Notes: generated from the sequence alone by a model not told the origin. Shown: positions 2,772 to 62,070, counted from the first letter of the stretch. The stretch: 64,000 bases of DNA from an uncultured Nitrososphaerota archaeon (GCA_963838925.1 CAWISW010000003.1:576001-640000); one strand, 5' to 3'. Program-made: numbers and translations.

Positions 2772-2808
2772 ATATTTAACATCCGTAAACGATTCTCAAG
2801 ATTGATTT
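2772..2808 (-). promoter_or_regulatory. Promoter of usp-pncB: AAATCA-ATCT-TGAGAA box, 13 bp, then TATA (TTAAATAT)
   Basis: Minus strand reads aaatca atct TGAGAA tcgtttacggatg TTAAATAT; same motif and spacing at four other promoters. Confidence 0.65.
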
Positions 2809-2851
2809 CGTGGCGTTGGGAATCGCTTAGCCGTCTGCCTCCTTCTCGCCT

Positions 2852-3988
2852 CTACTCTATGACGTGGATGTTCTTCCTTTCGCACATGTCCTTCAGGATC
2901 TTGGGCCAGACGCTGACGGTGACCTCGCCCAGGTGGGCCTTCTTGAGGAGCAGCATGTATGTCCGGGCCTGCCCGATCCCCCCGCCTACGCTGAGAGGCA
3001 GCTCGTTCTTGATTATCCCCTGGTGGTAGGGGAACTTCAGGAAGTCAAGCTGGCCGCTCATCTCTAGCTGCTTCCTCAGGGTCTGAGCATCGACGCGGAT
3101 GCCCATCGAGGTCAGCTCGTGGCGGCGCTTCGTGACCGGGTTCCAGACGAGGATGTCTCCGTTGAGCCCGTGCATGGGCCTGCCGTCCTCCGAGACTGTA
3201 GGAGTAGCCCAGTCGTCGTAGTCGGCCGCCCGCATCTCGTGCGGGAAGCCGTCCTTGAGAGTCCATCCGATCCCGATGATGAAGACCGCCGGATGCTCCT
3301 GGAGGATCGCGGTCTCCCTCTGCTTCCGAGGCAGGTCGGGGTACTCCTCGAGTATGTCCTCGGCGTGGATGAACTCGATCTCGTCCGGTAGGCTCTGGTA
3401 CCTGTCGGTCGCGAGCTGGGGGAACTCCTGCTGTATGTGGTTCTCGGCTCCTTTCAGGACCTTCCATATCTTCCTGACCACTTCCTTGAGGTATCCGACG
3501 TCCCGCTGGTCGGCAGTGATCGCCCTCTCCCAGTCCCACTGGTCCACGTAAGCGCTGTGGTCGTGGTCGAGGAAGTAGTCCTTGCGAACGGCCCTCATGT
3601 CGGTGCAGAGGCCTTCGCCCGGCTTCATCCCGAATTGCTTCAGCGCGATGCGCTTCCACTTCGTGGCGGCCTGAACCACCTGGGCGTCGACAGGATGCTT
3701 GTCGCGGTCGTTCGAGATGTGGAACTGCACCGGCGTCCGCGAAAGGTCGCGGTCGAGTAGGTCGTTCACTCCGCTCTCGGCGTCCACTATGAGCGGGACT
3801 TGGACCATCATGAGGTTCAGCTCCCTGCAGAGGTTTCGCTCGATGTAGTTTTTCACGTCGAAGACCGCGCTCTGCGTGTCCTTCGGATTCAGCAGGGAGG
3901 AGTAGTCGGCCGGGAGCACCTTCTCCAGCTCCTCGTACGAGCCTATTCCAGGGCCTGCCAGGTCGGCTCTCTTGGCTTTCTCAGACAA
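2852..3988 (-). CDS. asnA: Aspartate--ammonia ligase (asparagine synthetase A)
   Basis: QAATKWKR, GEGLCTDMRAVR, HSAYVDQWDWE, RAADYDDW, LNGDIL, SMGIRV, GGGIGQAR; likely TTG start at 3988 (ORF extends to 4069). Confidence 0.9.
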   Translation of the reverse strand: MSEKAKRADLAGPGIGSYEELEKVLPADYSSLLNPKDTQSAVFDVKNYIERNLCRELNLMMVQVPLIVDAESGVNDLLDRDLSRTPVQFHISNDRDKHPVDAQVVQAATKWKRIALKQFGMKPGEGLCTDMRAVRKDYFLDHDHSAYVDQWDWERAITADQRDVGYLKEVVRKIWKVLKGAENHIQQEFPQLATDRYQSLPDEIEFIHAEDILEEYPDLPRKQRETAILQEHPAVFIIGIGWTLKDGFPHEMRAADYDDWATPTVSEDGRPMHGLNGDILVWNPVTKRRHELTSMGIRVDAQTLRKQLEMSGQLDFLKFPYHQGIIKNELPLSVGGGIGQARTYMLLLKKAHLGEVTVSVWPKILKDMCERKNIHVIE

Positions 3989-4062
3989 TTCGCTCGTAGC
4001 GGCGGATGCACGGCGCGGTATATTGATTTGGGATGCCGGCACCGACTCAAGGCGCCTCAGGA

Positions 4063-4098
4063 TTGCCAAGCTTGAGAATCGTGCCTCTGCTTTTTAAG
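4063..4098 (+). promoter_or_regulatory. Promoter of CBS gene: TTGCCA-AGCT-TGAGAA box, 12-13 bp, then TATA (TTTTTAAG)
   Basis: ttgcca agct TGAGAA tcgtgcctctgc TTTTTAAG, about 33 bp before the TTG start. Confidence 0.65.
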
Positions 4099-4130
4099 AC
4101 CGCAACTCGCTCCGCGCGACGAAGATACAA

Positions 4131-4637
4131 TTGTCGCTAATCGATGCGCCAGTGAGAAGCGCCATGACCAAGAACGTCAAGACGGTCGAGGCAACGAAGA
4201 CGCTCGCAGACTGCGTGAAGTCGATGCGGGATGCAGACATCGGGTGCATGGTCGTGGTCGGGAAGGACCAAACACCCGTCGGAATATTCACCGAGAGGGA
4301 TCTGGTGAACAAGATTGCGGAAAAAGGTCACGCAGTCCTTAGCCAACAGATGGCGCAGGTCATGAACAAGCCCCTGACGATCATCTCCCCGGTTGCGACG
4401 ATCTGGGATGCGGTGACGCTCATGGGGCGTGCCAACATCAGGCGGCTTCCGGTGGTGGAGAACGGCCACTTGGTCGGAATACTGACTGAGAGGGACGTGT
4501 TCCGACTCATACTGGCTCAACAGAACCTGCTGTTGGAGACCGTGTCCGAGTCCCTTCCTGCTGCCACCAGAGAGCAGGTGAGGGGAATAGCCGGTCGCTT
4601 CGGCCTTGAGAGACCCCCCGGCCGAGCGAGCGCTTGA
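4131..4637 (+). CDS. CBS-domain pair protein
   Basis: Two CBS repeats: MTKNVKTV...PVGIFTERDL and MNKPLTII...IRRLPVVENGHLVGILTERD. Confidence 0.92.
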   Translation: MSLIDAPVRSAMTKNVKTVEATKTLADCVKSMRDADIGCMVVVGKDQTPVGIFTERDLVNKIAEKGHAVLSQQMAQVMNKPLTIISPVATIWDAVTLMGRANIRRLPVVENGHLVGILTERDVFRLILAQQNLLLETVSESLPAATREQVRGIAGRFGLERPPGRASA

Positions 4638-4662
4638 TCGAAGCTCTTTGAGAGTAGCAACA

Positions 4663-6273
4663 TCACAGCCAAGTTACCGAGAAGTGGTCGCCTCGAGAGA
4701 CCAGCGGGGCGAACGGCGTCCCTGTCCCGGCGTAGAACTGCGAAAGCCACTCGTACAGCTGCAGCCTCATGTCCTGGATGTAGACGATTACGCCCTCCAG
4801 GCTTATCACCGCGACGTTGAGGATTACGGCGACGACCACGCCGGCGGCTCCGTATGACAGGACGCCGCCCACCAAGCTCCCCAGCAGCGTGGTCGTGATC
4901 AGTAGTACCCCAAGCCGAATGTAGCTGAGCGTGTTCAGGAAGAACTCGAAGGGCTTCGCTACCGATTCAAGGAGGCCCTCGCCCAACCCCCTTGCCGCTC
5001 TCCGCAGACTTCGAGTTGACAGATATTCGCGAACCGGGTGCCCCACCACCATGAAGAGCAACGTTGCGACTATCACAGGCAGAGACACGCCTGCAGTGAC
5101 CGCGATGGGGACGCTCAGACCCAAGAGATTATTGAATATGGGCGTCGGCGCGGTGCTAGTAAGCAAGACCCCGAAGTTCAGGCCTGTTCCTGCCACGGCG
5201 AAGCCGAACGGAATGAAGAAGGCGTAGAGTACGATGGTTGGGAGCCTATCCAGGAAGGCGTCGAGGTAGTTCCCGGCCCTCTCTTGGTTGACAAAGGCGA
5301 TCGAGTATCCGCTCGCCAGATGGAATGCGCCGATTAGTATCGCCACCTCAAGAAGAAAGGGTATCGACGAGAGCGTGAAGCTGGCGCTTAGGGCAGGCGG
5401 GAGAGGAATCACCTTCTGCAAAGGCGACTGGAAGGGCACGCCGAAGAACGACCCCCTGACGAAGCCGAACACCGTCGTCGAGAAGCTGAGGATGAAGATG
5501 AGCTCTCCCCAAGCCTTGTATGCAGTCCGGTAGACCAGATACAGCCCGAAAGCGAGCAGCGCGATGCCGTGGCCCACGTCAGCAAACATCACACCGAAGA
5601 AGAACGGGAAGACAAACGCAAGGATAGGGGTCGGGTCGACCTCTCCATACTTGGGGAGGCCGCGCTCGAGCGTGAGGCTCTCGAAGACCGAGACTAGTCG
5701 AGGGTTCACGAGCAGAGTCGGGATGTATGCCACATCTTTGCCCTGCGTCTTGACCGGCTCGGCTGCGACGAGGTAGCTTCCCATCGAGTCCTTGAACGAG
5801 TCAAGCGCGTGCGCGGGGACGAATCCCTCGGTCCTCAGCTTCGCGTCCTCAGAGGGGTACACGAAGATCCTCTGGAGGTCGCTGAATACCATGAGAGACG
5901 CTTCCTGGATAGCCAAGAGGACTTGCGTCACCCCCCACTTGTCGTCCGACTCGGTGAACAACGAGAGGTTCTTCTCGATTATCTCAATGTACTCCTCCAG
6001 CACTCTCACGAGTTCGTCTACGTCGTGCGCTTCGAACTTCTCGACCTGCTTCCCTCGGTTGGCAGTCTTGAACAGGCCTTCCCCGAGCAGCTCGCTGGCC
6101 TGCGCGTAGATCTCGTGAGCCTTGGAGCCCGTCAGAAGCAGGCCGATGTCCTGTACCATCCCTCCCTTCCTTGACGGGTGGAATGCGATGAACTTGATCA
6201 CCTTCGCCATCAGCCGGCCCGCCTCGGACTTGGGCGCCTCCAGAGTCACCCTGACGAGACGAGCCACCGCCAA
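4663..6273 (-). CDS. A/V-type ATPase subunit I (a) homolog, stand-alone
   Basis: PKYGEVDPTP..FPFFFGVMFADVGHG, NTLSYIRL (essential Arg), IQDMRLQLYEWLSQFY.G.G.PF.P; shortened N-terminal domain; no other ATPase subunits adjacent. Confidence 0.85.
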   Translation of the reverse strand: MAVARLVRVTLEAPKSEAGRLMAKVIKFIAFHPSRKGGMVQDIGLLLTGSKAHEIYAQASELLGEGLFKTANRGKQVEKFEAHDVDELVRVLEEYIEIIEKNLSLFTESDDKWGVTQVLLAIQEASLMVFSDLQRIFVYPSEDAKLRTEGFVPAHALDSFKDSMGSYLVAAEPVKTQGKDVAYIPTLLVNPRLVSVFESLTLERGLPKYGEVDPTPILAFVFPFFFGVMFADVGHGIALLAFGLYLVYRTAYKAWGELIFILSFSTTVFGFVRGSFFGVPFQSPLQKVIPLPPALSASFTLSSIPFLLEVAILIGAFHLASGYSIAFVNQERAGNYLDAFLDRLPTIVLYAFFIPFGFAVAGTGLNFGVLLTSTAPTPIFNNLLGLSVPIAVTAGVSLPVIVATLLFMVVGHPVREYLSTRSLRRAARGLGEGLLESVAKPFEFFLNTLSYIRLGVLLITTTLLGSLVGGVLSYGAAGVVVAVILNVAVISLEGVIVYIQDMRLQLYEWLSQFYAGTGTPFAPLVSRGDHFSVTWL

Positions 6274-6297
6274 CTTACAGCGCCTTCAGGATTGCTC

Positions 6298-6759
6298 TCA
6301 GCGTATCACGAGTACCGCGCACCCGGAGTACTCTACAAGGCCTGACGCCACGCTCCCCACGAGGATCCTCCTCGAAGGTGTAGTCCCACGAGTTCCGGTA
6401 ACGATGAGGTCTGCCTTCATCGTCTCCGCATAACCGAGGATTGCGTCCACGACGGAATACGCACCCACGACAATCTCAGTCTTGACGCCGATTCCGTGTC
6501 TCGCGGCTATCTCCTCAACATCTTTCATCCACTTCTTCGCGTTCCTCCTTGCGTTCGCGTAGTTGTCGGCGAGCCCTCCCTGCAGCTCGAATTGCGGGGC
6601 CGGCACGACGTGGAGAGCCAGAAGCTCCGCCCCGTCCTGCCGAGCGATGCGCGCCGCGTGCTCCGCTCCCCTCAGTGACACTTCCGAGCCATCCACGGCG
6701 ACCACAATCCGAGTGAAGCCTTTCTTGCCTGTCGACGGCGCAGACATGCGTGCTTCCAT
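6298..6759 (-). CDS. Universal stress protein (UspA family)
   Basis: IVVAVDGSEVS...ADLIVTGTRG...LVGSVASGLV..SGCAVLVIR. Confidence 0.93.
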   Translation of the reverse strand: MEARMSAPSTGKKGFTRIVVAVDGSEVSLRGAEHAARIARQDGAELLALHVVPAPQFELQGGLADNYANARRNAKKWMKDVEEIAARHGIGVKTEIVVGAYSVVDAILGYAETMKADLIVTGTRGTTPSRRILVGSVASGLVEYSGCAVLVIR

Positions 6760-6771
6760 CGGCCCTTTCGT

Positions 6772-6806
6772 ATTTAATCAGGCGGTGGCTTTCTCAATCG
6801 TGAGAA
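6772..6806 (-). promoter_or_regulatory. Promoter of usp-subunit I: perfect TTCTCA-N4-TGAGAA palindrome, 13 bp, then TATA (TTAAATA)
   Basis: Palindrome at 6791-6806; minus strand TGAGAA agccaccgcctga TTAAATA. Confidence 0.75.
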
Positions 6807-6892
6807 TGGTCGGTAGGAATCTGGAATCGCTCTCCTCGCCTTAGGACGCCAAATTAAAGGCCAAAATAGTCTGCCCTCTAGGCTGCATAGCA

Positions 6893-7189
6893 ATGAGCTC
6901 CGACAACGAAGAGGAAGAGGCGGTCGTCCAAGAACGCGAGGTGACCGCAGAGCCTGACGCCAAGTCAGTCGAAGAGGCGGAGGAAGAAGTCGACGAGCTC
7001 GAAGAAGAGGTAGAGGAGGAGACCGAAGAGAAGGAGTCGGAGAAGATCGAAGACAGGCTGGACGAAAAACAGAGCGGCAGCAGCACCGCCGCCGCAAGAA
7101 GGCGACGAAGCAAGAAGAAGGCCAAGCCGAAGCCGAAGAAGCCTCCTCAGAAGAAGGTCAGACGCGGGTCCAAGACAAAGCGCCGTTGA
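6893..7189 (+). CDS. Small charge-segregated protein (Glu-rich N-terminus, Lys/Arg-rich C-terminus)
   Basis: ATG start downstream of an AT-rich box at about 6851; fills the intergenic gap; low complexity, no recognised family. Confidence 0.65.
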   Translation: MSSDNEEEEAVVQEREVTAEPDAKSVEEAEEEVDELEEEVEEETEEKESEKIEDRLDEKQSGSSTAAARRRRSKKKAKPKPKKPPQKKVRRGSKTKRR

Positions 7190-7198
7190 TCGGCGCAG

Positions 7199-7235
7199 TT
7201 CTCAAATCTGAGAATCGCCTTCGCGCGTTATATAT
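7199..7235 (+). promoter_or_regulatory. Promoter of flavoprotein operon: perfect TTCTCA-AATC-TGAGAA, 13 bp, then TATA (TTATATAT)
   Basis: TTCTCA aatc TGAGAA tcgccttcgcgcg TTATATAT, 22 bp before ATG 7258. Confidence 0.75.
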
Positions 7236-7257
7236 TAGAGAACGCACGAAGAATCCC

Positions 7258-9018
7258 ATGTCTGAAGCAGAGAAAAAGGGACCAGAGACTCCTACCAGCA
7301 AGGGAGTGTCGAGAAGACAGCTCCTCACAGGGGCGGTGGGCGGTCTCATCGTAGGCGCAGTGGCTGGCACAGCGATCGGTTCCCTTGGTTTCCCCAAGAC
7401 CGTCACCAAGACACAAACGGAAACATCTACTTCTACGACAACGTCCGTTTCTCAACCATGGCTCCCGGCTTCATGGGACTACGTCGCGGACGTGGTCGTC
7501 GTCGGCTTCGGCGGGGCTGGAGGAGTGGCGGCATTGAACGCTAACAAGGCGGGAGCCAAGGTTCTCATTTTGGAGAAGGCGCCCCAGGCTTATGCGGGGG
7601 GGAACACGAGCGTTTCGGGTGGAAACATATTCACGCCCTCGCCTGTAGCTGATGCGGTCACCTATCTCAACGCAATGGCGGGTCCGTATCCAATCCCGCA
7701 GGACATGGTCCAGACATGGGCGCAGCAGATGAGCCAGAACTTGGCCTCGCTCACAAGCCTCGGCGCCACTGCTTATCAGCAGGACACCTCAAGCGAGGTT
7801 CCGTCAGGATACGTAACTGCGCCCGCGAGCTTCCTCCCCGAGTTTTCAGCGCTTCCAGGCTCGGACTGCGCGCACGAGATTTGCTGCGGAGCTGCTCCCG
7901 GCCGAGGCTTGGACTATTTCAATGATGTCGCAAGCCTCGTCCAGAAGGCCGGAATACAGGTGCTCTACCAGACTCCGGCAACCGGTCTGGTTCAAAACCC
8001 CCAGACAGGGGAGATACTGGGAGTGATAGCGACCACCGCCACTGGAGGCACGGCCACAACCCCTGGCACGAACGGCGGCACTCCAATCCACGTCAAGGCC
8101 AGCAAGGCGGTGATCCTGACCCTCGGGGGATATGAGAACAACCCTCAGATGCTTCGCGATTTCTGTCAGCTCGCCAATGGTGGTCCGCACGGAACTCCGT
8201 ACAACACGGGAGACGGAATACCAATAGTGCAGAGTGTCGGTGCAGCTCTCTGGCACATGGACAACATATCGGGCTCTGGATTTGGCTTCCAGCCCACTCC
8301 CACCTCGCCGTTCTTCGGATTGTCGATGCCTGCACAAGGGTACATCTACATAGGAGCCGACGGCGCGCGGTTCGTCAACGAGAACGTCTCGAACCACCAC
8401 GGCAAGATCCCGTTCAACTATGTGGCCAACCCCACGGTCACGGCGAGCACCACCTGGATACCATACCCGACGCCATTCCCCATACAGGTAATCTTCGACG
8501 ACACAACGAGAGCGGCCGGTCCCATCACGCCTCTGCCAAACCCCGCCAGTCTGGGTTGGAACGTGGTCCGTGGCGTATACACTTGGAGCAGCGACAACAG
8601 CGTCGAGATAGGAAATGGCTGGATTACGAAAGCGGCAACTCTTCAGGAACTGGCTCCCCTTATCAACCGAGACCCCACCCAACTATCGAACGTGGTCGCC
8701 CAGTACAACAGTTACTGCGCAGCGGGCGTCGATGCGCAGTTCGGGAGGCCCAAGACAGACCTCATACCGATTCAGACTGCGCCGTACTACGCGGTCAGTC
8801 TGCAGTTCCATATGTTCAACACCCAAGGCGGTGCGAAGCGAAACACAAAGGCGCAGGTGGTGGACGCCGAGAACAACCCGATTCCGAGGCTCTATAGCGC
8901 GGGAGAATTCGGATCCATCTACAGCTGGGAGTACAACGGCGGCGGCAACCTAGGAGAGACTGTGGCCTTCGGCACCATCGCGGGCCAGACCGCGGCACAA
9001 GAGACTCCCTGGGGCTAG
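7258..9018 (+). CDS. Tat-exported FAD-binding oxidoreductase (FAD_binding_2; flavocytochrome c/KstD-like)
   Basis: SRRQLL Tat motif plus hydrophobic helix and Thr-rich linker; DVVVVGFGGAG, GGNTSVSGG, NTGDG, GARFVNE, NTQGG, IPRLYSAGE, GGGNL; ATG at 7258. Confidence 0.88.
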   Translation: MSEAEKKGPETPTSKGVSRRQLLTGAVGGLIVGAVAGTAIGSLGFPKTVTKTQTETSTSTTTSVSQPWLPASWDYVADVVVVGFGGAGGVAALNANKAGAKVLILEKAPQAYAGGNTSVSGGNIFTPSPVADAVTYLNAMAGPYPIPQDMVQTWAQQMSQNLASLTSLGATAYQQDTSSEVPSGYVTAPASFLPEFSALPGSDCAHEICCGAAPGRGLDYFNDVASLVQKAGIQVLYQTPATGLVQNPQTGEILGVIATTATGGTATTPGTNGGTPIHVKASKAVILTLGGYENNPQMLRDFCQLANGGPHGTPYNTGDGIPIVQSVGAALWHMDNISGSGFGFQPTPTSPFFGLSMPAQGYIYIGADGARFVNENVSNHHGKIPFNYVANPTVTASTTWIPYPTPFPIQVIFDDTTRAAGPITPLPNPASLGWNVVRGVYTWSSDNSVEIGNGWITKAATLQELAPLINRDPTQLSNVVAQYNSYCAAGVDAQFGRPKTDLIPIQTAPYYAVSLQFHMFNTQGGAKRNTKAQVVDAENNPIPRLYSAGEFGSIYSWEYNGGGNLGETVAFGTIAGQTAAQETPWG

Positions 9019-9045
9019 GTAGGCGGCCGAGGGGTTGAACGATGA

Positions 9046-10005
9046 GTGCAGGCCGTGACCAAATCAAGCAGAGAAGGATTTGGACGGTTTGTCCTCGTCG
9101 TCGCCGTCCTGTCTCTACTAGCAGTGGCTTTTGAAAGCACAGCACACACAGCGGCCGCCGTAACGACCGTCACTGCATACAAGGCGCAGGTACCGGTCAA
9201 TGTTACTGCGCCATATCAGCCGAGCGAATGGAGTGACACGCTACAGTTCTCCGAAAAAAGCTCGGAGATGGCGGTAGCCTTCAAGCAGAACGGTACAGGA
9301 CTTCTTTTCATGATGAGATGGAACGAGTCATCCACCGCTTGCTACGACACCTACTGCTTCGGCGGGATTGAGCTTGGGTACTTGAATAACACGGAAGAGA
9401 TGGGAACACCCTCAACACCCACCATCATGATTCTAGTCAGTCAATCCTCTACCAACCATGTAGACGAATTCGTCTCCACGGGAGACCAGACCCCAAGCGC
9501 GGTTGAGGGCTACGGCTACAGCACACAGTCGACCTGTGGATTGGATGTCATCAGCAATGAGTACATCGCGACATGCTATCGCCCGTTTGCTCTCCACAAT
9601 GCCTCGCCCTACGACCCTTTTCCCAGCTTGGTAGCAGGCTCGCCGATAGAGATCGCATTCGCTGTGGGTGAATTCACAGTCCCAGGACTCCACGACGCTA
9701 GCGACATGAGCACCTACGTCCTACAGATTAGCAACTCACTATACACCGCCACATCAACCGCGTCATCTTCTACGTCTTCTTCCACGACAGTTGCCGCCTC
9801 AAATGAGACCTCTTCGTCTTCGACGTCTTCATCCGCATCTTCCAAGTCGTCTTCGAGCGAGACCACAACTTCCACGACCAGCATAATCACGACTTCCGCT
9901 CCTTCGACGCCGAGCGCCAGCGTCTACGCGGAGGAGCTCGCGGTCATCGTCGTGGGATTCTCCGTCTTGATGCTGGTCGTCCTGACAAAGTACAGGAGTA
10001 GATGA
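9046..10005 (+). CDS. Membrane-anchored extracellular beta-rich protein, DOMON-like (possible heme b)
   Basis: Signal peptide, LLFMMRW, EEMG, YRPF, IEIAFAVG...GLH, Ser/Thr linker, C-terminal TM; the DOMON assignment is inference. Confidence 0.55.
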   Translation: MQAVTKSSREGFGRFVLVVAVLSLLAVAFESTAHTAAAVTTVTAYKAQVPVNVTAPYQPSEWSDTLQFSEKSSEMAVAFKQNGTGLLFMMRWNESSTACYDTYCFGGIELGYLNNTEEMGTPSTPTIMILVSQSSTNHVDEFVSTGDQTPSAVEGYGYSTQSTCGLDVISNEYIATCYRPFALHNASPYDPFPSLVAGSPIEIAFAVGEFTVPGLHDASDMSTYVLQISNSLYTATSTASSSTSSSTTVAASNETSSSSTSSSASSKSSSSETTTSTTSIITTSAPSTPSASVYAEELAVIVVGFSVLMLVVLTKYRSR

Positions 10006-10649
10006 GAGTCTTGGAATTCGCCGGAATCCAGATGCTGACGTGGCACGACTTCGTCGTGGAGCTGCACACAGGGGTCGTCGTCTTCGTGATTGTAGCGATA
10101 GTCCTCCGCCTTGCCGTTGACGCCGGACAGAGGGGGAAGGTCACAGCGTCGGCGCGGGTCCAGGAAATCCGCCAGGGCACCGACTTCGTCGCGTATTTGG
10201 GCGCCATCCTCGCCGTAGTCTTTCTTGCAATCTCAGGGATCACCGGCTATCTCCTTCTCCCATATTCGACCCTTAGCGGTCAGTCCATCTACCTCAACAA
10301 GGCCTTTGTGGCATTGGCCGCCCTCTTCTTCTGGGCGGCATTCGCGTTCCTCCGCTACTGGTCGGGCACTACGATGTGGCAGAAGAGGGGGCTGTACGCT
10401 CTCGCCGTCATAACCGCGTTCTTCGGTCTCCTATTCACCACGCTGGCTGGCTCGATCGGCGCCGAGCTCACGATAGGCCAGTCCGTGCTCACCCCGGTCT
10501 ACAACGCCTTCTCGATAAACTTCAGCCAGCTGACCCTTCAGCCGCTTGACGTGGAGGTCACGGCCGTCCTGGTCATCGTGGCCATCGTTATCGTGGCCTT
10601 CCTCAAGCCGTCACGAAGAGCCGCGTCGAAGCCTCAGCCGGCCCCGTAG
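10002..10649 (+). CDS. Multi-pass membrane protein (DUF2231-like N-terminal H..VVELH helix)
   Basis: About 5 TM segments, two His in the first helix, SGITG and GSIGAEL motifs; overlaps upstream stop. Confidence 0.6.
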   Translation: MRVLEFAGIQMLTWHDFVVELHTGVVVFVIVAIVLRLAVDAGQRGKVTASARVQEIRQGTDFVAYLGAILAVVFLAISGITGYLLLPYSTLSGQSIYLNKAFVALAALFFWAAFAFLRYWSGTTMWQKRGLYALAVITAFFGLLFTTLAGSIGAELTIGQSVLTPVYNAFSINFSQLTLQPLDVEVTAVLVIVAIVIVAFLKPSRRAASKPQPAP

Positions 10650-10798
10650 TACTGGACGACTCCCACCGCGCCCGTTTCAGCGCCAACTCTCTCGTTAACA
10701 CATTTGTTTGATATTCGCACGGAAAAGTAGCTAAACGTTAGGGAAATGTTCACTAAATTTATATATCATTACGCAGAAAGAGGTGACGACTTAACAAG

Positions 10799-11185: not shown

Positions 11186-11230
11186 AGAACGGTCTCAAGG
11201 GAGTCGGTCCCTCTTCAGTAGCCGACCAGG

Positions 11231-52415: not shown

Positions 52416-52428
52416 GACGGCGCCGACG

Positions 52429-52815: not shown

Positions 52816-52949
52816 GGTCTATCCTTTGCCGCGGGCACCGTGTGACCTTATACAGGTTTCCTAAGATTCATCGACGAAGTCGCCTGAGAAGGACGAACCG
52901 AAGCGAGACTTCAGCTAAAATACCAAAGCGGCGGTTCATCTGCCGAAGG

Positions 52950-54511: not shown

Positions 54512-54590
54512 CCCAAGACGTCGAAAGCCCGCGGGCGATAATAACCCCACCTTGGCCGGAGGCTAGAGATATAGAGAAGGCAAGCGTTCG

Positions 54591-55670
54591 GTGAATCTGG
54601 GCTCTGACTTGCGATTTGGAACCAGCCGAAGCCTGTCCACGGTCGTGGCCGTCGTCGGGTTGGCACTCATAGGGCTCGTCCTCGTGGCGGCCATCCGCGG
54701 TGGCTCAACTGTGAGCGCCACCACCACCGTGAGCAGCTACACGGCCTCCGGCTCGACGGCGATGAGCTTCGCGGTGCTGGACCAGAGCGCGAGCTACGGG
54801 ATCCCGTCCTACGACGACCAGGCGGTCCAGCAGGCGGACCTCTCGATGCTGCTCTCGACCGGCGCCCAGTGCGTCAGGGTCGACATCGGCTACGGCCCGT
54901 GGCTCTCCAACGACCAGGCCACGATATCCCTGATCACCTCGGTGGTCAACTCGATAAGGAGCGCGGGGAGGTGCCTGATCATCGCGGACGCGAGCTCGGA
55001 GAGCTATCGCAACGGCGGGGGGCTGCCGTGGAGCCAGTTCAAGGTGGCCTGGGTCTCAAGGGTGCAGACGCTGGCTGCCCTCTACCACCCTGACTACTAC
55101 ATCGTGGTCAAGGAGCCGGGGTGGTACGTGCCCATGGTCAGCGACTCGTCGACGAACCCAGAGTTCCAGAACATGAGCGACTGGGTGGCCCTGACCCAGA
55201 ACCTGACGTCGGCGGTCCTCTCCTCCTCGCCGGGGACGAAGGTGGGAGTGGCGATAGCGGCGGACAGCCTGAACTCCGACCAGGCGTCCTACACCGCCTA
55301 CCTCAACCAGGTGCAGGCCATCCCGGGGCTCTCCTTCATCGGCTTCGACGTCTACACGTCGACCGGGCAGACCGCGGCCGAGACCTACCTCTCCCAGAAC
55401 CCTCCCACGAAGGACGTCTGGATCTCGGAGGCGTGGCGCGCAGACGGCGCGCAGATCTACTACCCGGTCAACGCCCAGCCCGACGCGCAGTGGATGAAGT
55501 CGATCTACCAGTTCGCCCAGTCCATAGGCGCGAAGATGCTCATCCCCTTCTACACGGACCTCTTCTCGGGCTACACGGTCCCCACCGACTCCAGCTCGAT
55601 GGTCGCGTTCTACCAGGGGAGGACGCCGGCCTACACGGAGTTCAAGAACGTGGTGTCCGGAAATCCCTAG
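54591..55670 (+). CDS. Membrane-anchored glycoside-hydrolase-like (TIM barrel) protein
   Basis: N-terminal TM, GAQCVRVD, VVKEP (acid/base-like), IGFDVY, VWISE (nucleophile-like); clan GH-A pattern. Confidence 0.65.
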   Translation: MNLGSDLRFGTSRSLSTVVAVVGLALIGLVLVAAIRGGSTVSATTTVSSYTASGSTAMSFAVLDQSASYGIPSYDDQAVQQADLSMLLSTGAQCVRVDIGYGPWLSNDQATISLITSVVNSIRSAGRCLIIADASSESYRNGGGLPWSQFKVAWVSRVQTLAALYHPDYYIVVKEPGWYVPMVSDSSTNPEFQNMSDWVALTQNLTSAVLSSSPGTKVGVAIAADSLNSDQASYTAYLNQVQAIPGLSFIGFDVYTSTGQTAAETYLSQNPPTKDVWISEAWRADGAQIYYPVNAQPDAQWMKSIYQFAQSIGAKMLIPFYTDLFSGYTVPTDSSSMVAFYQGRTPAYTEFKNVVSGNP

Positions 55671-55736
55671 CCTGCCGTCTGGTTGCTCCACGTCTCGACG
55701 TTGAGGCTTTAATACGCGCGCCCCAGTCCCTTTGCA

Positions 55737-55874
55737 TTGTCTTTTTCTGAAGAAACCGAATACGATGACCAGATTGTGATTGTCGACGGCATAGGGATAA
55801 CCCACTTCATACCGAGGCGCTCCCCCGCCCAGAAGGAGGCGCCCGCGAAGAAGCCGAAGAAAAAGAGCCGGTAG
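55737..55874 (+). CDS. Small protein (45 aa), missed by the ORF track
   Basis: TTTAATA at 55708-55714, TTG 55737: MSFSEETEYDDQIVIVDGIGITHFIPRRSPAQKEAPAKKPKKKSR*. Confidence 0.6.
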   Translation: MSFSEETEYDDQIVIVDGIGITHFIPRRSPAQKEAPAKKPKKKSR

Positions 55875-55882
55875 AGCCCGGG

Positions 55883-56224
55883 CTAAGGGCTCCCTGCCAT
55901 TATCCAGACGAGGTTGCCGTCTGGGTCCTTGAACTGCGAAATCTCGCCCCAGGCCTTCTTGGTGTAGTCGATGGCGAACTTCACGCCCTTCTTCTTGAGG
56001 TCAGCGACCGTGCTCTTCAGGTCTGCGCTGTAGAACGCGGCGCCGGTGTTCCCCGGCTCGAGCTCTCCCTCGCATAGATGGAGCTTCCACTTCGCCCCCT
56101 TTGGCGAGACCGTCACCCAGTGTTCCTCGATCTCGGCCACGAAGCCGAGCTTCTCCTTGTACCAAGCCGCGGACTTTTTGGCGTCTGAAACCATTATCGC
56201 CAAGCTGAAGTCTTTTGAAATCAT
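55883..56224 (-). CDS. VOC/glyoxalase family protein
   Basis: AIMVSD.KKS..WY.EKLGF...WG....FKDPDGN. Confidence 0.9.
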   Translation of the reverse strand: MISKDFSLAIMVSDAKKSAAWYKEKLGFVAEIEEHWVTVSPKGAKWKLHLCEGELEPGNTGAAFYSADLKSTVADLKKKGVKFAIDYTKKAWGEISQFKDPDGNLVWIMAGSP

Positions 56225-56271
56225 AGCCGCCCCATGACGGGGTGCCTAATCCCCTTTTCGATTGGGGAGAG

Positions 56272-56793
56272 TCAGGAGAGGTCTGAGGCCTTCAGCCTCT
56301 CGCCGTATCTCTCGCGGAAGGCCAGCTCCTCCAGGGGCTTCCTGTTCTTCTTCCCAAGGATCTTCCTCTTCGAGTAGCCGAACCCGAGGACGGCCGCGGG
56401 CTTGAGCTCCTCGGGAATCGCGTAGTCCTTGCGCAGCGCGACCTCTCCGACCCCCGTGTAGATGCCGGAGGCGACGCCGAAGTTCCACGCGGCGAGCTCC
56501 ATGTCCTGGACGACCCGCCCCGCGTCTATGGAGCTCCCCGGAACCTTGGGGTCGATCAGGATGACGACCGCGAAGTCCGCTCCCTCCACCCACTTGCCCG
56601 TCGTGCTGTCAGCCGCGAGCCTCCTGAGATTCGCGCGGTCTTGGATGACGACGAAGCGCCAGTGCTGCGTGTTCATCGAGGACGCCGTCAGCCTCGCCGC
56701 CTCGAGGATCTTACTCTTGGTCTCGCCCGGGACGCGCTTGGATTGGAACTCTCTCACGTCCAGCTTGGTGGAGATCGCGTCGAAAGTGTCCAT
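56272..56793 (-). CDS. Nitroreductase family protein
   Basis: DAI....VREF, ILEAARLTASSMNTQHWRFVV, IDAG...M.LAA...G. Confidence 0.9.
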   Translation of the reverse strand: MDTFDAISTKLDVREFQSKRVPGETKSKILEAARLTASSMNTQHWRFVVIQDRANLRRLAADSTTGKWVEGADFAVVILIDPKVPGSSIDAGRVVQDMELAAWNFGVASGIYTGVGEVALRKDYAIPEELKPAAVLGFGYSKRKILGKKNRKPLEELAFRERYGERLKASDLS

Positions 56794-56879
56794 TGAGACA
56801 GAAAGAACGCCCGCCCTTAGTTAGGCGTTCCGGTCGGCCTTCGCTAGATATTTAACGAGTGAAACCCGTCGGAGTCGCA

Positions 56880-57260
56880 ATGGCCTCCACCCCCGGGCAG
56901 CCACCGTCATCGCCGAGCCGGACACGGAGGCTGTTCTACGCGATCTCAGGCATCGTCGCGGTGATGGTGGTCGGCACGATAGGCTTCCACCAGATAGAGG
57001 GCATGAGTTGGGTGAACTCCGTCTACTTCGAGAGCATGCTCGCCACCGGCCAGGGACCTCCCATCCAGCTCATGACCGACTCGGGCAAGATCTTCGCGTC
57101 GGTGATGGCCTTCGTCTCCGTAGGCTCGGTGATCACCGCGTTGGTCGTCACCCTCGCCCCCATAATCTCGCAGCTCTGGCGGGAGGGATGGGAGAGGGCA
57201 GAGAAGGACGCGAAGACCCTGGAGCGAGACCTCTCGGGAAAGAAGAAGGCCGACGAGTAG
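56880..57260 (+). CDS. Two-TM ion-channel-like protein (Ion_trans_2 fold) with atypical filter
   Basis: VGTIGFH.IEG.SW.NS.YF...ATGQGP....T.SGKIF; TVGYG replaced by TGQG. Confidence 0.75.
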   Translation: MASTPGQPPSSPSRTRRLFYAISGIVAVMVVGTIGFHQIEGMSWVNSVYFESMLATGQGPPIQLMTDSGKIFASVMAFVSVGSVITALVVTLAPIISQLWREGWERAEKDAKTLERDLSGKKKADE

Positions 57261-57275
57261 CCGCGAGCTCGGCGC

Positions 57276-58679
57276 CTAGTCCTCGAGCCGAGCGAGGAAC
57301 ACGGTCTCCGAGTAAGGCCTCTTGTCCCTCTCGGTCCTGTCCTCCACCGGCCTCTCGAAAGACCTCTCGATGCGCATCCCCGCCTCCTCGAAGATGGACG
57401 GGTAGAGGCCGAGCCGGTCGTTAGCGACGAGGAGGACGGCCGCCCTTGGGGCGAGTCCCTCCCTGACGTTGAGGAGGGACTCCGCCATCCCCTTGGAGTA
57501 CTCTGCCTGCGCCCGCTCTCCCTTCCCTCTGGTCTTCGGCCCTATCTCGAGCTCGTCCCTCCTCTCTATCCCGAAGAGCTCGTACGCGTATCTGTGCTGC
57601 TCGTGGTAGTCTATCTGCCCCACGTACGGGGGCGAGGTGAACACGGCCTCGGCCCGCCTGCCGCCGAGCTCGTCCCCGAGCCTGACCATCCTCGAGTCGC
57701 CCTCGATCACGAGCGAGGTCGCGGGCTTCCTCGCCCTCTGAAACTCCCCGACCCGGCGCAGCGTGTCGACCGAGTACGACCTCAGCCTTGGGACGATCGT
57801 CGTGACCGGCTCGCACGTCTTTCCCATGTGCTTGTAGCAGACGTAGGGAGCCCTGACGGGCTTCTTGGGGGTCGCGAGGTCGTAGTGGTGGACGAGCCTG
57901 CACGAGCGGGCCGTCCTGCTCAGGAGGACCTTCAGGAGGTCCTGGTGCTCGTACTCGGGTATGACGTCGCGGAAGAAGAGCATCTCGCGAAGGCTCCTGG
58001 GCGCGAACCAGGTCGCGAGATAGTCGCCGTCGTCTGCGCTCGCCCTTGCCAGCCTCGCCCCCTTGCCGTCCGGGTACTCCTTCGCGCTGAACTCCGCGGT
58101 CCGCCTCGTGATGTCGGAGACCTCCCTATCCAACTTCGGGACGTCGTACTCAGCGAGCTTCACCCTCGAGATCATCACGTTGAACTCCGAGACCTCGACG
58201 CCGACGGAGTCGATCCCCCTCTCGCTCGCCTCGACCAGCGTCGTCGCCGAGCCGCTGAAGGGGTCCACCACCAACTGCCCCCGCTCGAGGTACCTCTCCA
58301 GGAAGTAGCCCACCAGCTGGGGTATGAACTTCCCGAGGTACGGGTGGAGCCTGTGGACGTGCTTCGTCCTGTCCCTCTCGGGGACGTCTAGGAACGCTAT
58401 CGAGGTGTCGCCAATCTTCAGCGCCTCCATCCTCGACCTGACCCTCTCGTTCCAGCTCTCGACGTAGCCGAGCAGCTCCCTCCTCGAGACCCTGAGCCCT
58501 CCGCTCCCCGCCCGGCTGACGACCCTCCCGCTCGCGTCGTACCTCCTGAGGCGGTTGTACTGGACGAGGTAGGAGATGTTGCTCGGCGTCTTGCCGACTA
58601 GGAGCGCCGCGTCGTCCAGGGTGAGCAGGTCCTCGACCAGCGCGCCCCTCTGCGCTCCCGGGGCAGGTCTCTTCGCCAA
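57276..58679 (-). CDS. Orphan amino-type DNA methyltransferase (SPPY, N4-cytosine-like) with N-terminal HTH
   Basis: HRLHPYLGKFIPQL, DPFSGSATT, FTSPPY; N-terminal LLTLDDAA...GKTPSNISYL HTH. Confidence 0.85.
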   Translation of the reverse strand: MAKRPAPGAQRGALVEDLLTLDDAALLVGKTPSNISYLVQYNRLRRYDASGRVVSRAGSGGLRVSRRELLGYVESWNERVRSRMEALKIGDTSIAFLDVPERDRTKHVHRLHPYLGKFIPQLVGYFLERYLERGQLVVDPFSGSATTLVEASERGIDSVGVEVSEFNVMISRVKLAEYDVPKLDREVSDITRRTAEFSAKEYPDGKGARLARASADDGDYLATWFAPRSLREMLFFRDVIPEYEHQDLLKVLLSRTARSCRLVHHYDLATPKKPVRAPYVCYKHMGKTCEPVTTIVPRLRSYSVDTLRRVGEFQRARKPATSLVIEGDSRMVRLGDELGGRRAEAVFTSPPYVGQIDYHEQHRYAYELFGIERRDELEIGPKTRGKGERAQAEYSKGMAESLLNVREGLAPRAAVLLVANDRLGLYPSIFEEAGMRIERSFERPVEDRTERDKRPYSETVFLARLED

Positions 58680-58874
58680 TGGCTTCCGAGCCCAAAGGCC
58701 GTGTTTTCTATTAATGCCTTCCGCGGCGCGGTTCTGACGCGTCTTAGGGAGAAGAGGCCTTCAGGCCTTCATGTGGTGCAACTTGGGAGATGACGCCTCA
58801 TCGTAGGATAATTGAACAGGAAGGCCGTTCGGGCAAACATATTTCCGGATGGACACGCCAAGGACCGATACGAA

Positions 58875-59534
58875 ATGAGAACTCGAAGGTCTGCAATCGG
58901 AAAGGGGGTCATTACCATGATTGCAGTCGCAGTCATAGTCGGAGCGGTGGGGGTCATCTCGCTTTCGCCGCGGTCGAATGTCTCCACTTCTTCCAATACT
59001 CCTTCTCCTGCTTTGTCCGGCATAGCGCCGTATATCGGGGGGCTATCTGCACAGAATGTCTCTTGTTCCCTCGCAAGCGGCGTTTGCGCCTTCACGATAG
59101 TGAACAACAGCACCACGCCACTGGAACTGGAAGACTTTTGCCAAATGACGGTGATAGCAGCCGTCAACGTGACCTCCACAACGACCTACACTGCCGGCAG
59201 CGAATCGGCGACCACGACCTACATCAGCTTCGGAAATGGGTCGACCTCGACAGTGATTTCCACACCCAACAGCTCTGCCACCGCGTCCACGGCCATCGTG
59301 ACCCTAACGGAATATCTCAACATCAACGGCACGATTAGCGGTCCCGCCGCAACTGGTATCCCCGCTGATTCTCAGGCCGCCGCCACTTGCACAATGCCCA
59401 CCACGCAGCTCGGCCACGAGACGGAAGGGTCGGTTGCCGATGGAGGCCTCCAGGTGAAGATCATCGATTCTGTTGACTCCTACCCGGCTGGAACGGAGAT
59501 ACGCTTTGGCTTCGAAGGCACGTGGAGCCACTGA
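58875..59534 (+). CDS. Membrane-anchored/secreted hypothetical protein
   Basis: RRSAIG plus hydrophobic helix (class III signal-like), Thr-rich beta domain; lower GC than neighbours. Confidence 0.65.
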   Translation: MRTRRSAIGKGVITMIAVAVIVGAVGVISLSPRSNVSTSSNTPSPALSGIAPYIGGLSAQNVSCSLASGVCAFTIVNNSTTPLELEDFCQMTVIAAVNVTSTTTYTAGSESATTTYISFGNGSTSTVISTPNSSATASTAIVTLTEYLNINGTISGPAATGIPADSQAAATCTMPTTQLGHETEGSVADGGLQVKIIDSVDSYPAGTEIRFGFEGTWSH

Positions 59535-59660
59535 AGCGGTCTTTCCATCTCCGGAGTTGCACCACCAAAAATCCTCACGGGCCTATCTCCCTAAGACGCA
59601 CCAGAACCCGCGGCGCGCTCAAGGTCAGCCCCCACCCAATGCATATACTCCGACCGGTGA

Positions 59661-61079
59661 GTGGGGACTGGCAGCTTGGGCCTGCGACGGGACCTCTCCT
59701 ACTTCGACCTGATGAACATCGTCATCGGGGCCATCGTCGGCAGCGACATCTACGTGATCCCCGGGATCACCGCAGGGCTAATCGGACCCTTCGCCATCGT
59801 GATCTGGATAATAGGCGGGGCCACCGCCATGGTGCTTGCTATGGTCTTCGGCTACTGCGCGTACTACGTCCCCAACGTCGGGGGCTCGTACGCCTACGTG
59901 TCCACCGCCTTCAACAGGTTCTACGGCTTCATAGCCGGGTGGAGCATGTGCATCGCCGAGATAGTCGCGCTCCCCGTGTACGCGATCGTGTTCATTACCT
60001 ACCTCCAGTACTTCGTCCCCGTCAACGCGGAGGAGCAGCTTGTCATCAAATCCCTCTTCGTCCTCGCCTTCGTCGCGATAAACGTCCGAGGCGTGAAGGC
60101 CGCCGGCAGGCTGAACGACGTCCTCACCCTCGCCAAGCTCGCCCCTCTGCTCCTCATAATCGTGCTCGGCTTGGGCTCGCTAGCCCTCCACCCCAAGCTC
60201 GTCGGCAACTACACGCCGTTCGCCCCCTTCGGGCTCAACAACTTCGGGACGGTCATGGTCCTGGTCTTCTGGGCGTACGCGGGGTTCGAGCTGGGGAGCC
60301 TGCCGTCGAGCGAAGTCGTCGACCCGAAGAGGAACGTCCCCCGGGCGCTCATCGTGGGGATGGCCATCGTGGTGCTCTTCTACGTGCTGACGAACGTCGC
60401 GGTCTTCGGGCTGGTCGGCTCGGCCAACCTCGCGAAGAGCGCGGTTCCGCTCATACTGGTGAGCACGGTCCTCCTCGGCACCTTGGGATCCGTGATAACG
60501 GGAGTCGGCGCCCTCGCCTCCGTCTCCGGGACTGACGAGACCGAGGTCATGGGGACCGCCCGCCTGATCTACGCGATGTCGGCGGACGGGTTGCTGCCCA
60601 AGGCGCTCGCGAAGGTCCACGCGCGCTTCAAGACCCCGCACGTCGCGATCCTCCTCGAGGGCGGGATAGCGCTCGTGCTCTCGCTCTTCACAGGCATAGC
60701 CCAGCTCATCTCGTTCGCCGTCTTCAACCTCGGAGTGTGCTACCTCCTCGTATGCCTCGCCCTGGTCGTGCTGAAGAGGAAGCGCGAAAAGGGCCTGCCA
60801 GGGCAGGGTGTGATCCCCTGGCTCGGCGCGGCAATCAGCATCTACCTGCTCTACTCCACTTCCCTCCTCGACAAGGTGCTCGGGTCGGCCTTCGTGCTCC
60901 TCGGCATCCCCATCTACCTCTTCTTCTCAAAGGCGAAGGTCCGGGAAGTCGAAGCCGAGCTCATCTCCGATGAAGCGATCCTCCAGGCGGAGCTCGAGAA
61001 GCAGCACGGCTTCCTGGCGAACCTCGTCAGGCTGACGAGGGCCGCCTATCGGCGCCTCAGTCGCAGGCCGAAGAAGTGA
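59661..61079 (+). CDS. APC family amino acid permease
   Basis: LRRDL, IGAIVGS.I, P.VGGSY.Y, FWAYAGFE, EV.DP.RNVPRA, ARLIYAMS.DG. Confidence 0.93.
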   Translation: MGTGSLGLRRDLSYFDLMNIVIGAIVGSDIYVIPGITAGLIGPFAIVIWIIGGATAMVLAMVFGYCAYYVPNVGGSYAYVSTAFNRFYGFIAGWSMCIAEIVALPVYAIVFITYLQYFVPVNAEEQLVIKSLFVLAFVAINVRGVKAAGRLNDVLTLAKLAPLLLIIVLGLGSLALHPKLVGNYTPFAPFGLNNFGTVMVLVFWAYAGFELGSLPSSEVVDPKRNVPRALIVGMAIVVLFYVLTNVAVFGLVGSANLAKSAVPLILVSTVLLGTLGSVITGVGALASVSGTDETEVMGTARLIYAMSADGLLPKALAKVHARFKTPHVAILLEGGIALVLSLFTGIAQLISFAVFNLGVCYLLVCLALVVLKRKREKGLPGQGVIPWLGAAISIYLLYSTSLLDKVLGSAFVLLGIPIYLFFSKAKVREVEAELISDEAILQAELEKQHGFLANLVRLTRAAYRRLSRRPKK

Positions 61080-61138
61080 CTTCTCATGGAGGGGAGATGC
61101 AGAGGGTTTTTCTCGCCGCTTCATCGTGTCCGTCTCAC

Positions 61139-62017
61139 ATGCTCAGCTCGAGGGCGAGGCTAGCCGTCGCCATCCTAGCGGTAGTCGGGATCGCCCTGGC
61201 GGCCGTCGCCTTCCTCTCGCTCCCCGGGACCCAGCAATCAGGACAGCCGAGCGGCTCCGCGGTCACCGCCGTGGTGACCGCCTCCGGCGGAAACGTCACG
61301 TTCACGCAAGGCCCCGGCACCGCCGTCTCCTCGCCCTCGTGCGCCGGGTCGACCGAGACCTACGGGAACCTGACGTGGAGCGTCAGTCCCTGCGTCTCCT
61401 ACGGCTTCCCCTCGGCGCCCCTCAAGAACGCGACCCTCGACTCGCAGCAGGTCCTCGCCTTCATCAAGGGGGCCTACGAGTACCACCTCGTCTACTTCGC
61501 GTTCAGCAAGGCCTACGCGAACGTGATGTACGCCATCCTGAACGTCACCGGGAGCCAGGTCGTGACCGGAAACTGGACGACAGGGTACCAAGTGTCATAC
61601 GTCGGGGACAAGCTGCTCAACGTAACCGTCATCCAGGTGATCCCATCCCACTACCAGGTGACGCACCTCTCGTCGTACTCTCTCCCGGACAGGAACTCGA
61701 CGGTGACCTACACGCCGCAGCAGCGGGACGCAATCCAGGTGGCGCTCTCCGATCCCAAGTCGAAGTCGCTCATGGTGGCGGCTCCCTACTACGTCGAGTT
61801 CGTGGGGTCGTCTGGCAACGGGACGCTCGTCGGCACCTACTTCATCCAGCTCTACCAGGTCGACGGCACAGGCGTCGTGGGCGCATTCGTCAACCCGTCC
61901 ACCGACTCGGTGGTCAGCACTTACTCCGAGCAGAGGATCTCTGGCGAGTGCTGGCCCGGAGGCATAGTCATCACGGACCCGTGGGACGCGACGGGCTACA
62001 GCGGCTGCAGCGGATAG
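61139..62017 (+). CDS. Membrane-anchored hypothetical protein
   Basis: N-terminal TM, Cys pairs, multiple N-x-S/T sequons. Confidence 0.7.
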   Translation: MLSSRARLAVAILAVVGIALAAVAFLSLPGTQQSGQPSGSAVTAVVTASGGNVTFTQGPGTAVSSPSCAGSTETYGNLTWSVSPCVSYGFPSAPLKNATLDSQQVLAFIKGAYEYHLVYFAFSKAYANVMYAILNVTGSQVVTGNWTTGYQVSYVGDKLLNVTVIQVIPSHYQVTHLSSYSLPDRNSTVTYTPQQRDAIQVALSDPKSKSLMVAAPYYVEFVGSSGNGTLVGTYFIQLYQVDGTGVVGAFVNPSTDSVVSTYSEQRISGECWPGGIVITDPWDATGYSGCSG

Positions 62018-62035
62018 TCGCTGCGATAGGCCTCG

Positions 62036-62070
62036 TTATCACGGTTGAGAATCGCACTCATTCTTTAAAG
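62036..62070 (+). promoter_or_regulatory. Promoter: TTATCA-CGGT-TGAGAA box, 12-13 bp, then TATA (TTTAAAG)
   Basis: ttatca cggt TGAGAA tcgcactcattc TTTAAAG, about 30 bp before ATG 62100. Confidence 0.7.

Follow-up and report, generated by a model that had tools for sequence, protein, structure and literature searches.

The palindrome TTCTCA-N4-TGAGAA is found at five promoters in a 64,000-nucleotide (nt) stretch of DNA from an uncultured Nitrososphaerota archaeon (C3:576001-640000, the whole of which is called the window below), and in the genome at large it stands at a nearly constant distance upstream of the TATA box at about 30 promoters. We think it probable that one sequence-specific factor, probably a dimer, binds this palindrome and that the palindrome works as an upstream activating site. 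The original prediction, made from the window alone, was an activator regulon of five promoters; those five stand, but the regulon extends to about 30 promoters rather than five. The genome is assembled in three contigs (1.84 Mb, 61% G+C, 87% complete) and is labeled G000 here; the genomes of its relatives are numbered from G001 upward, and L-numbers denote stretches read outside the window. The sequencing runs that contain the window or part of it comprise three DNA records from one study, labeled as soil metagenome.

The decisive evidence is the register between the palindrome and the TATA box rather than the enrichment of the palindrome in the window, which is weak (6 matches with at most 2 mismatches against 1.91 expected, with 3 of 100 shuffled sequences reaching 6; two of the six, at 7562 and 53697, are non-promoter matches that score below 11 with the matrix described next). 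All ten perfect copies of TTCTCA-N4-TGAGAA in the genome have a TATA-like hexamer at +28 to +30 in at least one orientation, a property of 2.3% of random positions. The 9-mer TGAGAATCG, which contains the TATA-proximal half, is present in 31 copies, compared with a mean of 8.5 for 300 shuffled 9-mers, and 12 of these 31 copies have a TATA-like hexamer at +18 to +20, as opposed to 82 of 2552 copies (3.2%) of the shuffled words. A 22-nt matrix built from the operator positions of 12 sites, with the TATA box excluded, gave 61 oriented matches scoring at least 13; 29 have a TATA box in register, and the remaining matches are mostly the reverse reading of the same palindromes. Measured from the first base of the site, the TATA box starts at offset 31 in 22 of the 29 promoters, at 30 in six and at 29 in one, and the 18 promoters that did not seed the matrix give the same picture (14, 3 and 1, respectively). 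The outcome named beforehand as damaging to the prediction, genome-wide hits placed at random relative to TATA boxes, was thus seen neither in the matrix scan nor in the exact-word tests. The extended consensus is about 22 bp long, (C)GATTCTCA-N4-TGAGAATCG, its proximal half is the better conserved, and 21 bp, or two helical turns, separate its center from the first T of the TATA box downstream.

The promoters that carry the site also differ from others in their core elements. At positions -6 to -4, where the B recognition element (BRE) is expected, A is present in 7, 10 and 14% of the 29 regulon promoters and in 31, 40 and 47% of 115 others (long open reading frames (ORFs) with high G+C at third codon positions, GC3, and a TATA-like box 18-48 nt before the ATG), and C makes up 41-55% of the BRE positions of the regulon promoters. 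The spacer between site and TATA box is C-rich and the A-rich BRE of ordinary promoters is absent from it, while the TATA boxes themselves look normal. Such a spacer without an A-rich BRE suggests promoters that would be weak on their own. A gap of 12-13 nt separates the TGAGAA half from the TATA box in all 29 promoters, so that the site lies wholly upstream of BRE and TATA box and never overlaps the core promoter or the start region. Start codons are mostly 60-75 nt after the first base of the site, which points to transcripts that are leaderless or have short leaders. A single palindrome is shared by two divergent haem operons, with a TATA box at offset 31 on each side, and back-to-back sites are present at two other divergent gene pairs. 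A site that is wholly upstream, phased to the base pair, attached to BRE-poor promoters and used from both sides is what would be expected of a symmetric dimer that recruits the TATA-binding protein (TBP) and transcription factor B (TFB); acting from one face of the helix, the bound factor would assist TBP and TFB in binding the DNA, and the promoters would then fire.

The motif is widespread in relatives, where the reversed motif served as the control for all counts (counts of patterns with up to 3 mismatches were too noisy and were left unused). Of the 22 other genomes in the genus, 20 contain the perfect palindrome, mostly in 2-10 copies, with 0-1 copies of the reversed control per genome; in 36 genomes of the family the strict word TCA-N4-TGAGAATC occurs 179 times against 6 for its control, and in 24 genomes of other families 47 times against 11. 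Orthologous promoters, whose lack of the motif would have counted against the prediction, carry it at HSP20, twin-arginine flavoprotein, usp-NAPRTase (nicotinate phosphoribosyltransferase) and HTH_10 genes. The site is present at 8 of the 10 best-scoring HSP20 loci and at none of 9 weaker homologues, at several homologous twin-arginine flavoprotein promoters in G007, G015 and G021, and, in a degenerate form, 68 nt before usp in the usp-NAPRTase operon of G014 (81% identical). G027 has eight sites in register, with DsrE, AllG and OFOR-like (2-oxoacid:ferredoxin oxidoreductase) genes among their targets, and G036 has sites at a Usp gene and at other genes. As a control for specificity, 28 housekeeping NAPRTase loci of relatives were scanned, and no site scoring at least 14 was found at any of them. 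Structural and maturation genes of [NiFe]-hydrogenase lie in motif-rich islands of G008 (L061, G008:C49) and G015 (L059, G015:C8), and the promoters with a site in G008 include those of a hydrogenase small subunit, HypC, NicO and TatA; no [NiFe]-hydrogenase genes were seen among the regulon operons of G000 itself.

In the window, the palindrome could be read at all five predicted positions. Its TATA-proximal half is TGAGAA in every case, is continued by TCG in four (the exception is 6791-6806) and is followed after 12-13 nt by a box reading TTAAATAT, TTTTTAAG, TTAAATA, TTATATAT or TTTAAAG. The predicted gene labels likewise agree with Pfam and NCBIfam matches for Usp plus NAPRTase, a CBS pair, Usp plus a V-ATPase-I-like protein, a twin-arginine flavoprotein and a metallophosphoesterase. 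As a check on whether the palindrome might instead belong to a known RNA family or repeat, the window was compared with Rfam and gave no match at gathering score.

The predicted 22-nt operator of site 1 (2789..2810, minus strand, matrix score 27.8) contains the palindrome at 2793-2808, in which the proximal half, within TGAGAATCG, is intact and all three mismatches fall in the degenerate TATA-distal half. Its TATA box TTAAATAT (2772..2779, minus) starts at offset 31 from the first base of the operator, and it precedes an operon (977..2707, minus) of Usp (2264-2707, Pfam E 1.1e-36) and NAPRTase (977-2245, NCBIfam E 1.2e-138). On the plus strand, site 2 (operator 4061..4082, score 30.7; palindrome 4063-4078 with two mismatches; TATA box TTTTTAAG at 4091..4098, read in the sequence) precedes the gene of a CBS-pair protein (4131..4637, plus; 168 amino acids (aa) from a TTG start, with an ATG at 4165; Pfam CBS E 5.1e-29). 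An aspartate-ammonia ligase (AsnA) gene occupies 2855-4069 on the minus strand; the longest reading frame predicted for it begins with TTG at 4069, inside the operator of site 2, and the true AsnA start is therefore probably further in. Site 3 (operator 6787..6808, minus) is a perfect 16-nt palindrome (6791-6806) with an in-register TATA box in the minus orientation only (TTAAATA, 6771..6777, minus, read in the sequence); its operon (4663..6759, minus) encodes Usp (6298-6759, Pfam E 7.5e-29) and a V-ATPase subunit I-like membrane protein (4663-6273, V_ATPase_I E 2.7e-24), and the NCBIfam matches of this operon are below their cut-offs.

The second perfect palindrome of the window, 7199-7214, is that of site 4 (operator 7197..7218, plus, score 29.1), whose TATA box TTATATAT was read at 7228..7235 (plus). 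The operon behind it (7258..10649, plus) consists of a twin-arginine FAD_binding_2 flavoprotein (7258-9018, Pfam E 6.6e-34; flavocytochrome c-like by an NCBIfam match below cut-off) and two proteins without a family (9046-10005 and 10002-10649). Between sites 3 and 4 lies a 98-aa ORF (6893-7189, plus) with a Glu-rich N-terminal two-thirds and a Lys/Arg-rich tail, which has no family match and has an AT-rich box of its own with no palindrome in register. Site 5 (operator 62034..62055, plus, score 28.6; palindrome 62036-62051 with one mismatch; TATA box TTTAAAG read at 62064..62070, plus) precedes a twin-arginine metallophosphoesterase gene (62100..63293, plus; Pfam Metallophos E 6.2e-07). The tail of a sixth regulon operon occupies 3..947 (plus), where the end of a 230-aa ORF is followed by a phosphoribosyltransferase gene (294-947, Pribosyltran E 4.8e-21); its promoter, at C3:575526, lies 475 nt before the window and has a matrix score of 22.5. 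Ten regulon promoters fall inside 14 kb that span the start of the window, five in it and five in the 6.5 kb before it.

Across the genome, the shared haem palindrome faces hemA, C, D and B, a chlorite-dismutase-like protein, hemL and hemE on one side, and ferrochelatase, a radical-SAM/SPASM protein and CopD on the other. Other targets belong to respiration (a cupredoxin and a Rieske/cytochrome b operon), electron transfer (ferredoxin with OFOR subunits; DUF996 with flavodoxin), sulfur transfer (DsrE, TusA and a pyridine-nucleotide-disulfide oxidoreductase) and transport (two ABC-2 exporters). Further enzymes are a PhoU_div protein with a PEP-utilising enzyme and arginine decarboxylase, a short-chain dehydrogenase (SDR), and an AllG/AllH/CoA-ligase cluster with an ABC importer. 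The stress proteins are three Usp, the CBS pair and HSP20; NAD salvage is represented by the Usp-NAPRTase operon, and the exported enzymes, both with twin-arginine signals, are the flavoprotein and the metallophosphoesterase. A V4R protein, a VapB-like/[4Fe-4S] fusion and an HTH_10 regulator are candidate sensors or regulators among the targets, and several regulon proteins have no family. The genome has two NAPRTase paralogues, 49% identical, namely the window copy behind Usp (977-2245) and a housekeeping-type copy (C3:291595-292809) that is the one shared with most relatives at ~50% identity; only the window copy has a regulon site. Taken together, haem, the respiratory chain, hydrogenase (in relatives), low-potential carriers, Usp, HSP20, CBS and NAPRTase proteins and cysteine-rich second-tier regulators read as a response to a signal of energy, redox or oxygen limitation; hypoxia or dormancy, the conditions originally suggested, would be plausible forms of it.

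The gene with one of the highest matrix scores (29.3) and a perfect site is that of the HTH_10 regulator, C2:90680-91366, which lies outside the window. Its 229-aa product has a Pfam HTH_10 domain (PF04967) at residues 154-206 (E 1.9e-19, 69.6 bits against a cut-off of 23.1) and an N-terminal domain with four cysteines (C31, C92, C102 and C105) that are invariant in 28 sequences. Eight orthologues, here called clade 1 together with it (36-70% identity, seven genera), all have the site 61-71 nt before the start codon, and at all nine loci the TATA box is at offset 31. An AlphaFold model of the protein (mean pLDDT 77.8) gave no Foldseek match in the PDB at E <= 0.001, and a profile search of PDB sequences gave nothing below E 0.07; in structure comparison with VIA-align the best match was Ta1207 (Z 8.5), the others being generic ferredoxin/ACT/HMA-like folds, and the C-terminal fold resembles LuxR/NarL-type domains (Z 6.5-7.0). 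Protein-atlas scores were at most 0.83 and are leads only.

The clade-1 promoters share a second palindrome, CCTAAY-N2-RTTAGG, between TATA box and start codon. G000 has only four copies (C2:90659-90672, C2:91412-91425, C2:228537-228550 and C1:406590-406603), and it was also found in L016-L018 and L020. Across 60 relatives its copy number follows the presence of the clade-1 orthologue: the 8 orthologue-bearing genomes contain 33 copies in all, and the other 28 genomes of the family contain 7, a number close to that of the reversed control. It also stands between TATA box and start codon of the gene of a 450-aa protein that is tail-sheath-like by eye, and one copy, together with a weak regulon site, precedes a 533-aa ORF (C1:407345-408946; L052:1345-2943) with the Pfam outer-membrane beta-barrel domain OMP_b-brl_4 (E 5.9e-75), which is odd in an archaeon. 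G000 encodes a second HTH_10 protein, which is rich in cysteine and has an HVO_A0563_N domain (C3:46853-47563, which is L195:1853-2563, minus), and the matrix scan showed no regulon site near it.

Several points weigh against the interpretation of the palindrome as an activating site of one factor. Position upstream of a TATA box alone does not prove activation, and no RNA run holding the window is listed among the sequencing runs searched, which leaves co-regulation and its direction unproven. The 12 matrix seeds were picked because they have a TATA box, so that the matrix, in contrast to the exact-word tests, is not blind to it, and the 115 comparison promoters are a crude ORF-based sample. 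Membership is fluid: the VapB-ferredoxin site is kept at 7 of 16 loci, and the phosphoesterase, which has its site in G000 as predicted, is a poorly conserved member, with a site at 3 of the 17 homologous loci examined (19 matches). Finally, every candidate tested for the factor fails a phylogenetic-profile check.

The obvious candidate is the four-cysteine HTH_10 protein itself, which would bind TTCTCA-N4-TGAGAA, sense redox state through its cysteines and activate its own gene along with the regulon. Its top-scoring site, kept with TATA offset 31 in all eight orthologues, and its invariant cysteines fit this, as does the description of the haloarchaeal HTH_10 proteins NarO and DmsR as anaerobic activators in the part of PMC11218638 available to us. 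Within one genus, G036 has the regulator and six sites and G030 has no regulator and at most one degenerate site, and at least four motif copies are present in 18 of 22 family genomes with any HTH_10 homologue and in 3 of 14 without one, a difference confounded by relatedness and genome completeness. However, G027, which is 96% complete, has its eight in-register sites and no HTH_10 domain or homologue, and G006 and G012 lack the N-terminal domain yet have 7 and 6 motif copies. The strict motif averages 5.0 copies per genome both with the clade-1 orthologue (40 in 8) and without it (139 in 28), it is CCTAAY-N2-RTTAGG and not the TTCTCA palindrome that tracks the orthologue, and 219-aa relatives with the same cysteine spacing have a TTCTCA site at only 2 of 7 loci. 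The G027 regulon, the equal motif counts and the second palindrome together mean that the clade-1 protein fails as a universal factor, and we regard it as unlikely to be the factor. Of the expectation that an autoregulated transcription factor gene would carry the site, then, one part stands, as the HTH_10 gene, whose product lacks PAS and GAF domains, does have it; the other is doubtful, as the gene is more likely a conserved target. Most likely the HTH_10 protein is a second-tier regulator under the TTCTCA factor and itself binds CCTAAC-N2-GTTAGG, since the second palindrome tracks the orthologue while the TTCTCA count does not.

A palindromic operator of this size is typical of repressors, and stress genes are commonly derepressed rather than activated; a bound dimer might hold the promoters off until stress releases them, and the sequence is compatible with interference with TFB and TBP from an upstream position. 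Archaeal repressors usually sit on or after the TATA box, however, and here the sites of all 29 promoters are clear of TATA box, BRE and start region; a poor BRE would leave these promoters weak even if no repressor acted on them, and the rigid two-turn phasing suggests contact between proteins rather than occlusion. We therefore consider repression quite improbable. The same rigid spacing, with a C-rich spacer where the BRE is expected, would also suit a composite core promoter, in which palindrome, spacer and TATA box are read by a specialised set of TFB/TBP paralogues; Thaumarchaeota have several TFB paralogues, and searches of candidates and islands found no dedicated regulator. But a two-fold symmetric element centered 21 bp from the TATA box is beyond the BRE contact of TFB, and one palindrome serving two divergent promoters is the expectation for a symmetric dimer, which makes such a composite promoter very improbable.

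As predicted, the window contains no gene that could be identified as that of the factor, and none was found elsewhere in the genome. The VapB-like/[4Fe-4S] fusion (C2:399498-399920) has the site, but a full-length match (E <= 1e-27) is present in only 5 of the 22 other genomes of the genus, and only the 7 of 16 orthologous loci noted above have a site. An ArsR-type gene beside a G007 site is found in 10 of 61 genomes and is absent from G000 and G027. The 219-aa proteins with the HTH_10 cysteine spacing fail on distribution as well as on their 2 of 7 sites; a 219-aa four-cysteine HTH_10 paralogue lies 5-6 kb from a twin-arginine metallophosphoesterase in G007, G010, G001, G011 and G015, a neighborhood conserved in these five genomes and not seen in G000. 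No DNA-binding domain was found in the V4R-domain proteins. Two of them, L009:5036-5548 (minus) and L051:994-1819 (plus), are similar to the redox regulator MsvR over its C-terminal part, one being divergent from the HTH_10 gene and the other behind a regulon site. No regulator recurs in the motif-rich islands of G007, G008, G015 and G021, where a scan of 68 hand-picked ORFs of 94 listed gave scattered weak winged helix-turn-helix or AbrB-like matches only, and none was found in the G000 island around the window.

A possible but distinctly tentative extension of the activator reading is a two-tier network for redox or oxygen limitation in uncultured soil Thaumarchaeota, with a master activator above the four-cysteine HTH_10 regulator. 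In the first tier the activator, bound at TTCTCA-N4-TGAGAA, would switch on haem synthesis, respiration, hydrogenase, electron carriers and dormancy-like proteins, as well as the HTH_10 gene. In the second, the HTH_10 regulator, probably a metal- or Fe-S-binding protein, would control a small regulon through its own operator CCTAAY-N2-RTTAGG and might repress itself from the copy between TATA box and start site, which is the usual place of an archaeal repressor. If this were true, it would be an archaeal counterpart of the FNR and DosR programmes, run by a factor family not previously linked to them.

Regulatory sites in Nitrososphaeria are almost undescribed, and the literature searched yielded only the copper-limitation motifs of one cultured ammonia oxidiser. 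The operator described here is sharply defined, is phased to the TATA box at the level of a single bp, and is present at ~30 promoters in G000 and at hundreds across the family. It could serve as a test bed for an archaeal activator that compensates for a missing BRE, its targets could act as markers by which a shortage of oxygen or energy is recognized in soil metatranscriptomes of these uncultured archaea, and a synthetic 22-mer could be used as bait for the factor.

Ptr2, TrmBL1 (at gluconeogenic promoters) and SurR (at hydrogenase promoters) are archaeal activators that bind just upstream of BRE and TATA box. As with them, the site here immediately precedes the core promoter, whose elements are weak, and recruitment of TBP and TFB is presumed; the differences are the motif, an unusually strict spacing (within 1 bp at 28 of 29 promoters) and a regulon that is large for one genome of ~2 Mb. 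The mechanism class is thus already known, and the rigid geometry and the large conserved regulon are what is unusual. The original prediction did not recognize the motif as a described archaeal operator, and in this it agrees with the literature searched, which gave no account of a TTCTCA/TGAGAA palindrome: a search for TGAGAA, archaea and palindrome gave CRISPR work only, and the palindrome is not described in the literature found on Thaumarchaeota promoters, motifs and regulons or on Nitrososphaera viennensis motifs.

The closest geometry is that of the haloarchaeal nirK, nor and nos promoters, which, in the excerpts available, have an inverted repeat with a 4-nt center 66-79 nt upstream of the ATG, are less active when the repeat is mutated and switch on in anoxia (PMC10062603, PMC11218638). 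The site here is similarly placed, with its first base 60-75 nt before the start codon, and in both systems an HTH_10 gene is itself among the motif-bearing genes. The haloarchaeal semi-palindrome is given in the same excerpts as CGAAYATDKTYG (CGAA-N4-TTCG; PMC11218638); the consensus here differs from this NarO/DmsR operator in its half-site, TTCTCA as against CGAA. The organisms also differ (Halobacteria and Nitrososphaeria), the targets here are not denitrification genes, and the HTH_10 protein here probably binds another palindrome. According to the part of PMC7785015 seen, copper limitation in N. viennensis is associated with two motifs, TTCSGSMTTTGWACYANT and a 27-mer rich in AT, which lie 35-70 nt ahead of start codons; these motifs define the only other candidate Thaumarchaeota regulons in the literature searched, but their sequences are unrelated, are not palindromes of the present type and belong to copper-related genes.

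Among bacterial systems, FNR is comparable in form. The palindrome here, like that of FNR (TTGAT-N4-ATCAA), has a 4-nt center and a fixed distance to the core promoter, and both regulons include haem synthesis, respiration and low-potential electron carriers; unlike FNR, the present system has the archaeal basal machinery and a different sequence, and a Crp/FNR-type protein was neither sought nor encountered. The mycobacterial DosR/DevR regulon resembles ours in gene content, by a functional analogy only, drawn from annotation. Rv2626c, one of its members, is a CBS-pair protein. Table 2 of PMC11203133, as excerpted, lists Rv2626c with the Usp proteins Rv2623 and Rv2624c, the alpha-crystallin HspX and a second NAPRTase, pncB2; here, correspondingly, the targets include three Usp, HSP20, a CBS pair, ferredoxins and a second NAPRTase, and the housekeeping copy has no site. 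DosR differs in being a bacterial two-component response regulator in a sigma-70 context, with another palindrome; no receiver-domain regulator is implicated here, although no search was aimed at two-component proteins. The parallel, down to the dedicated second NAPRTase, may suggest a convergent design of persistence programmes in the two groups.

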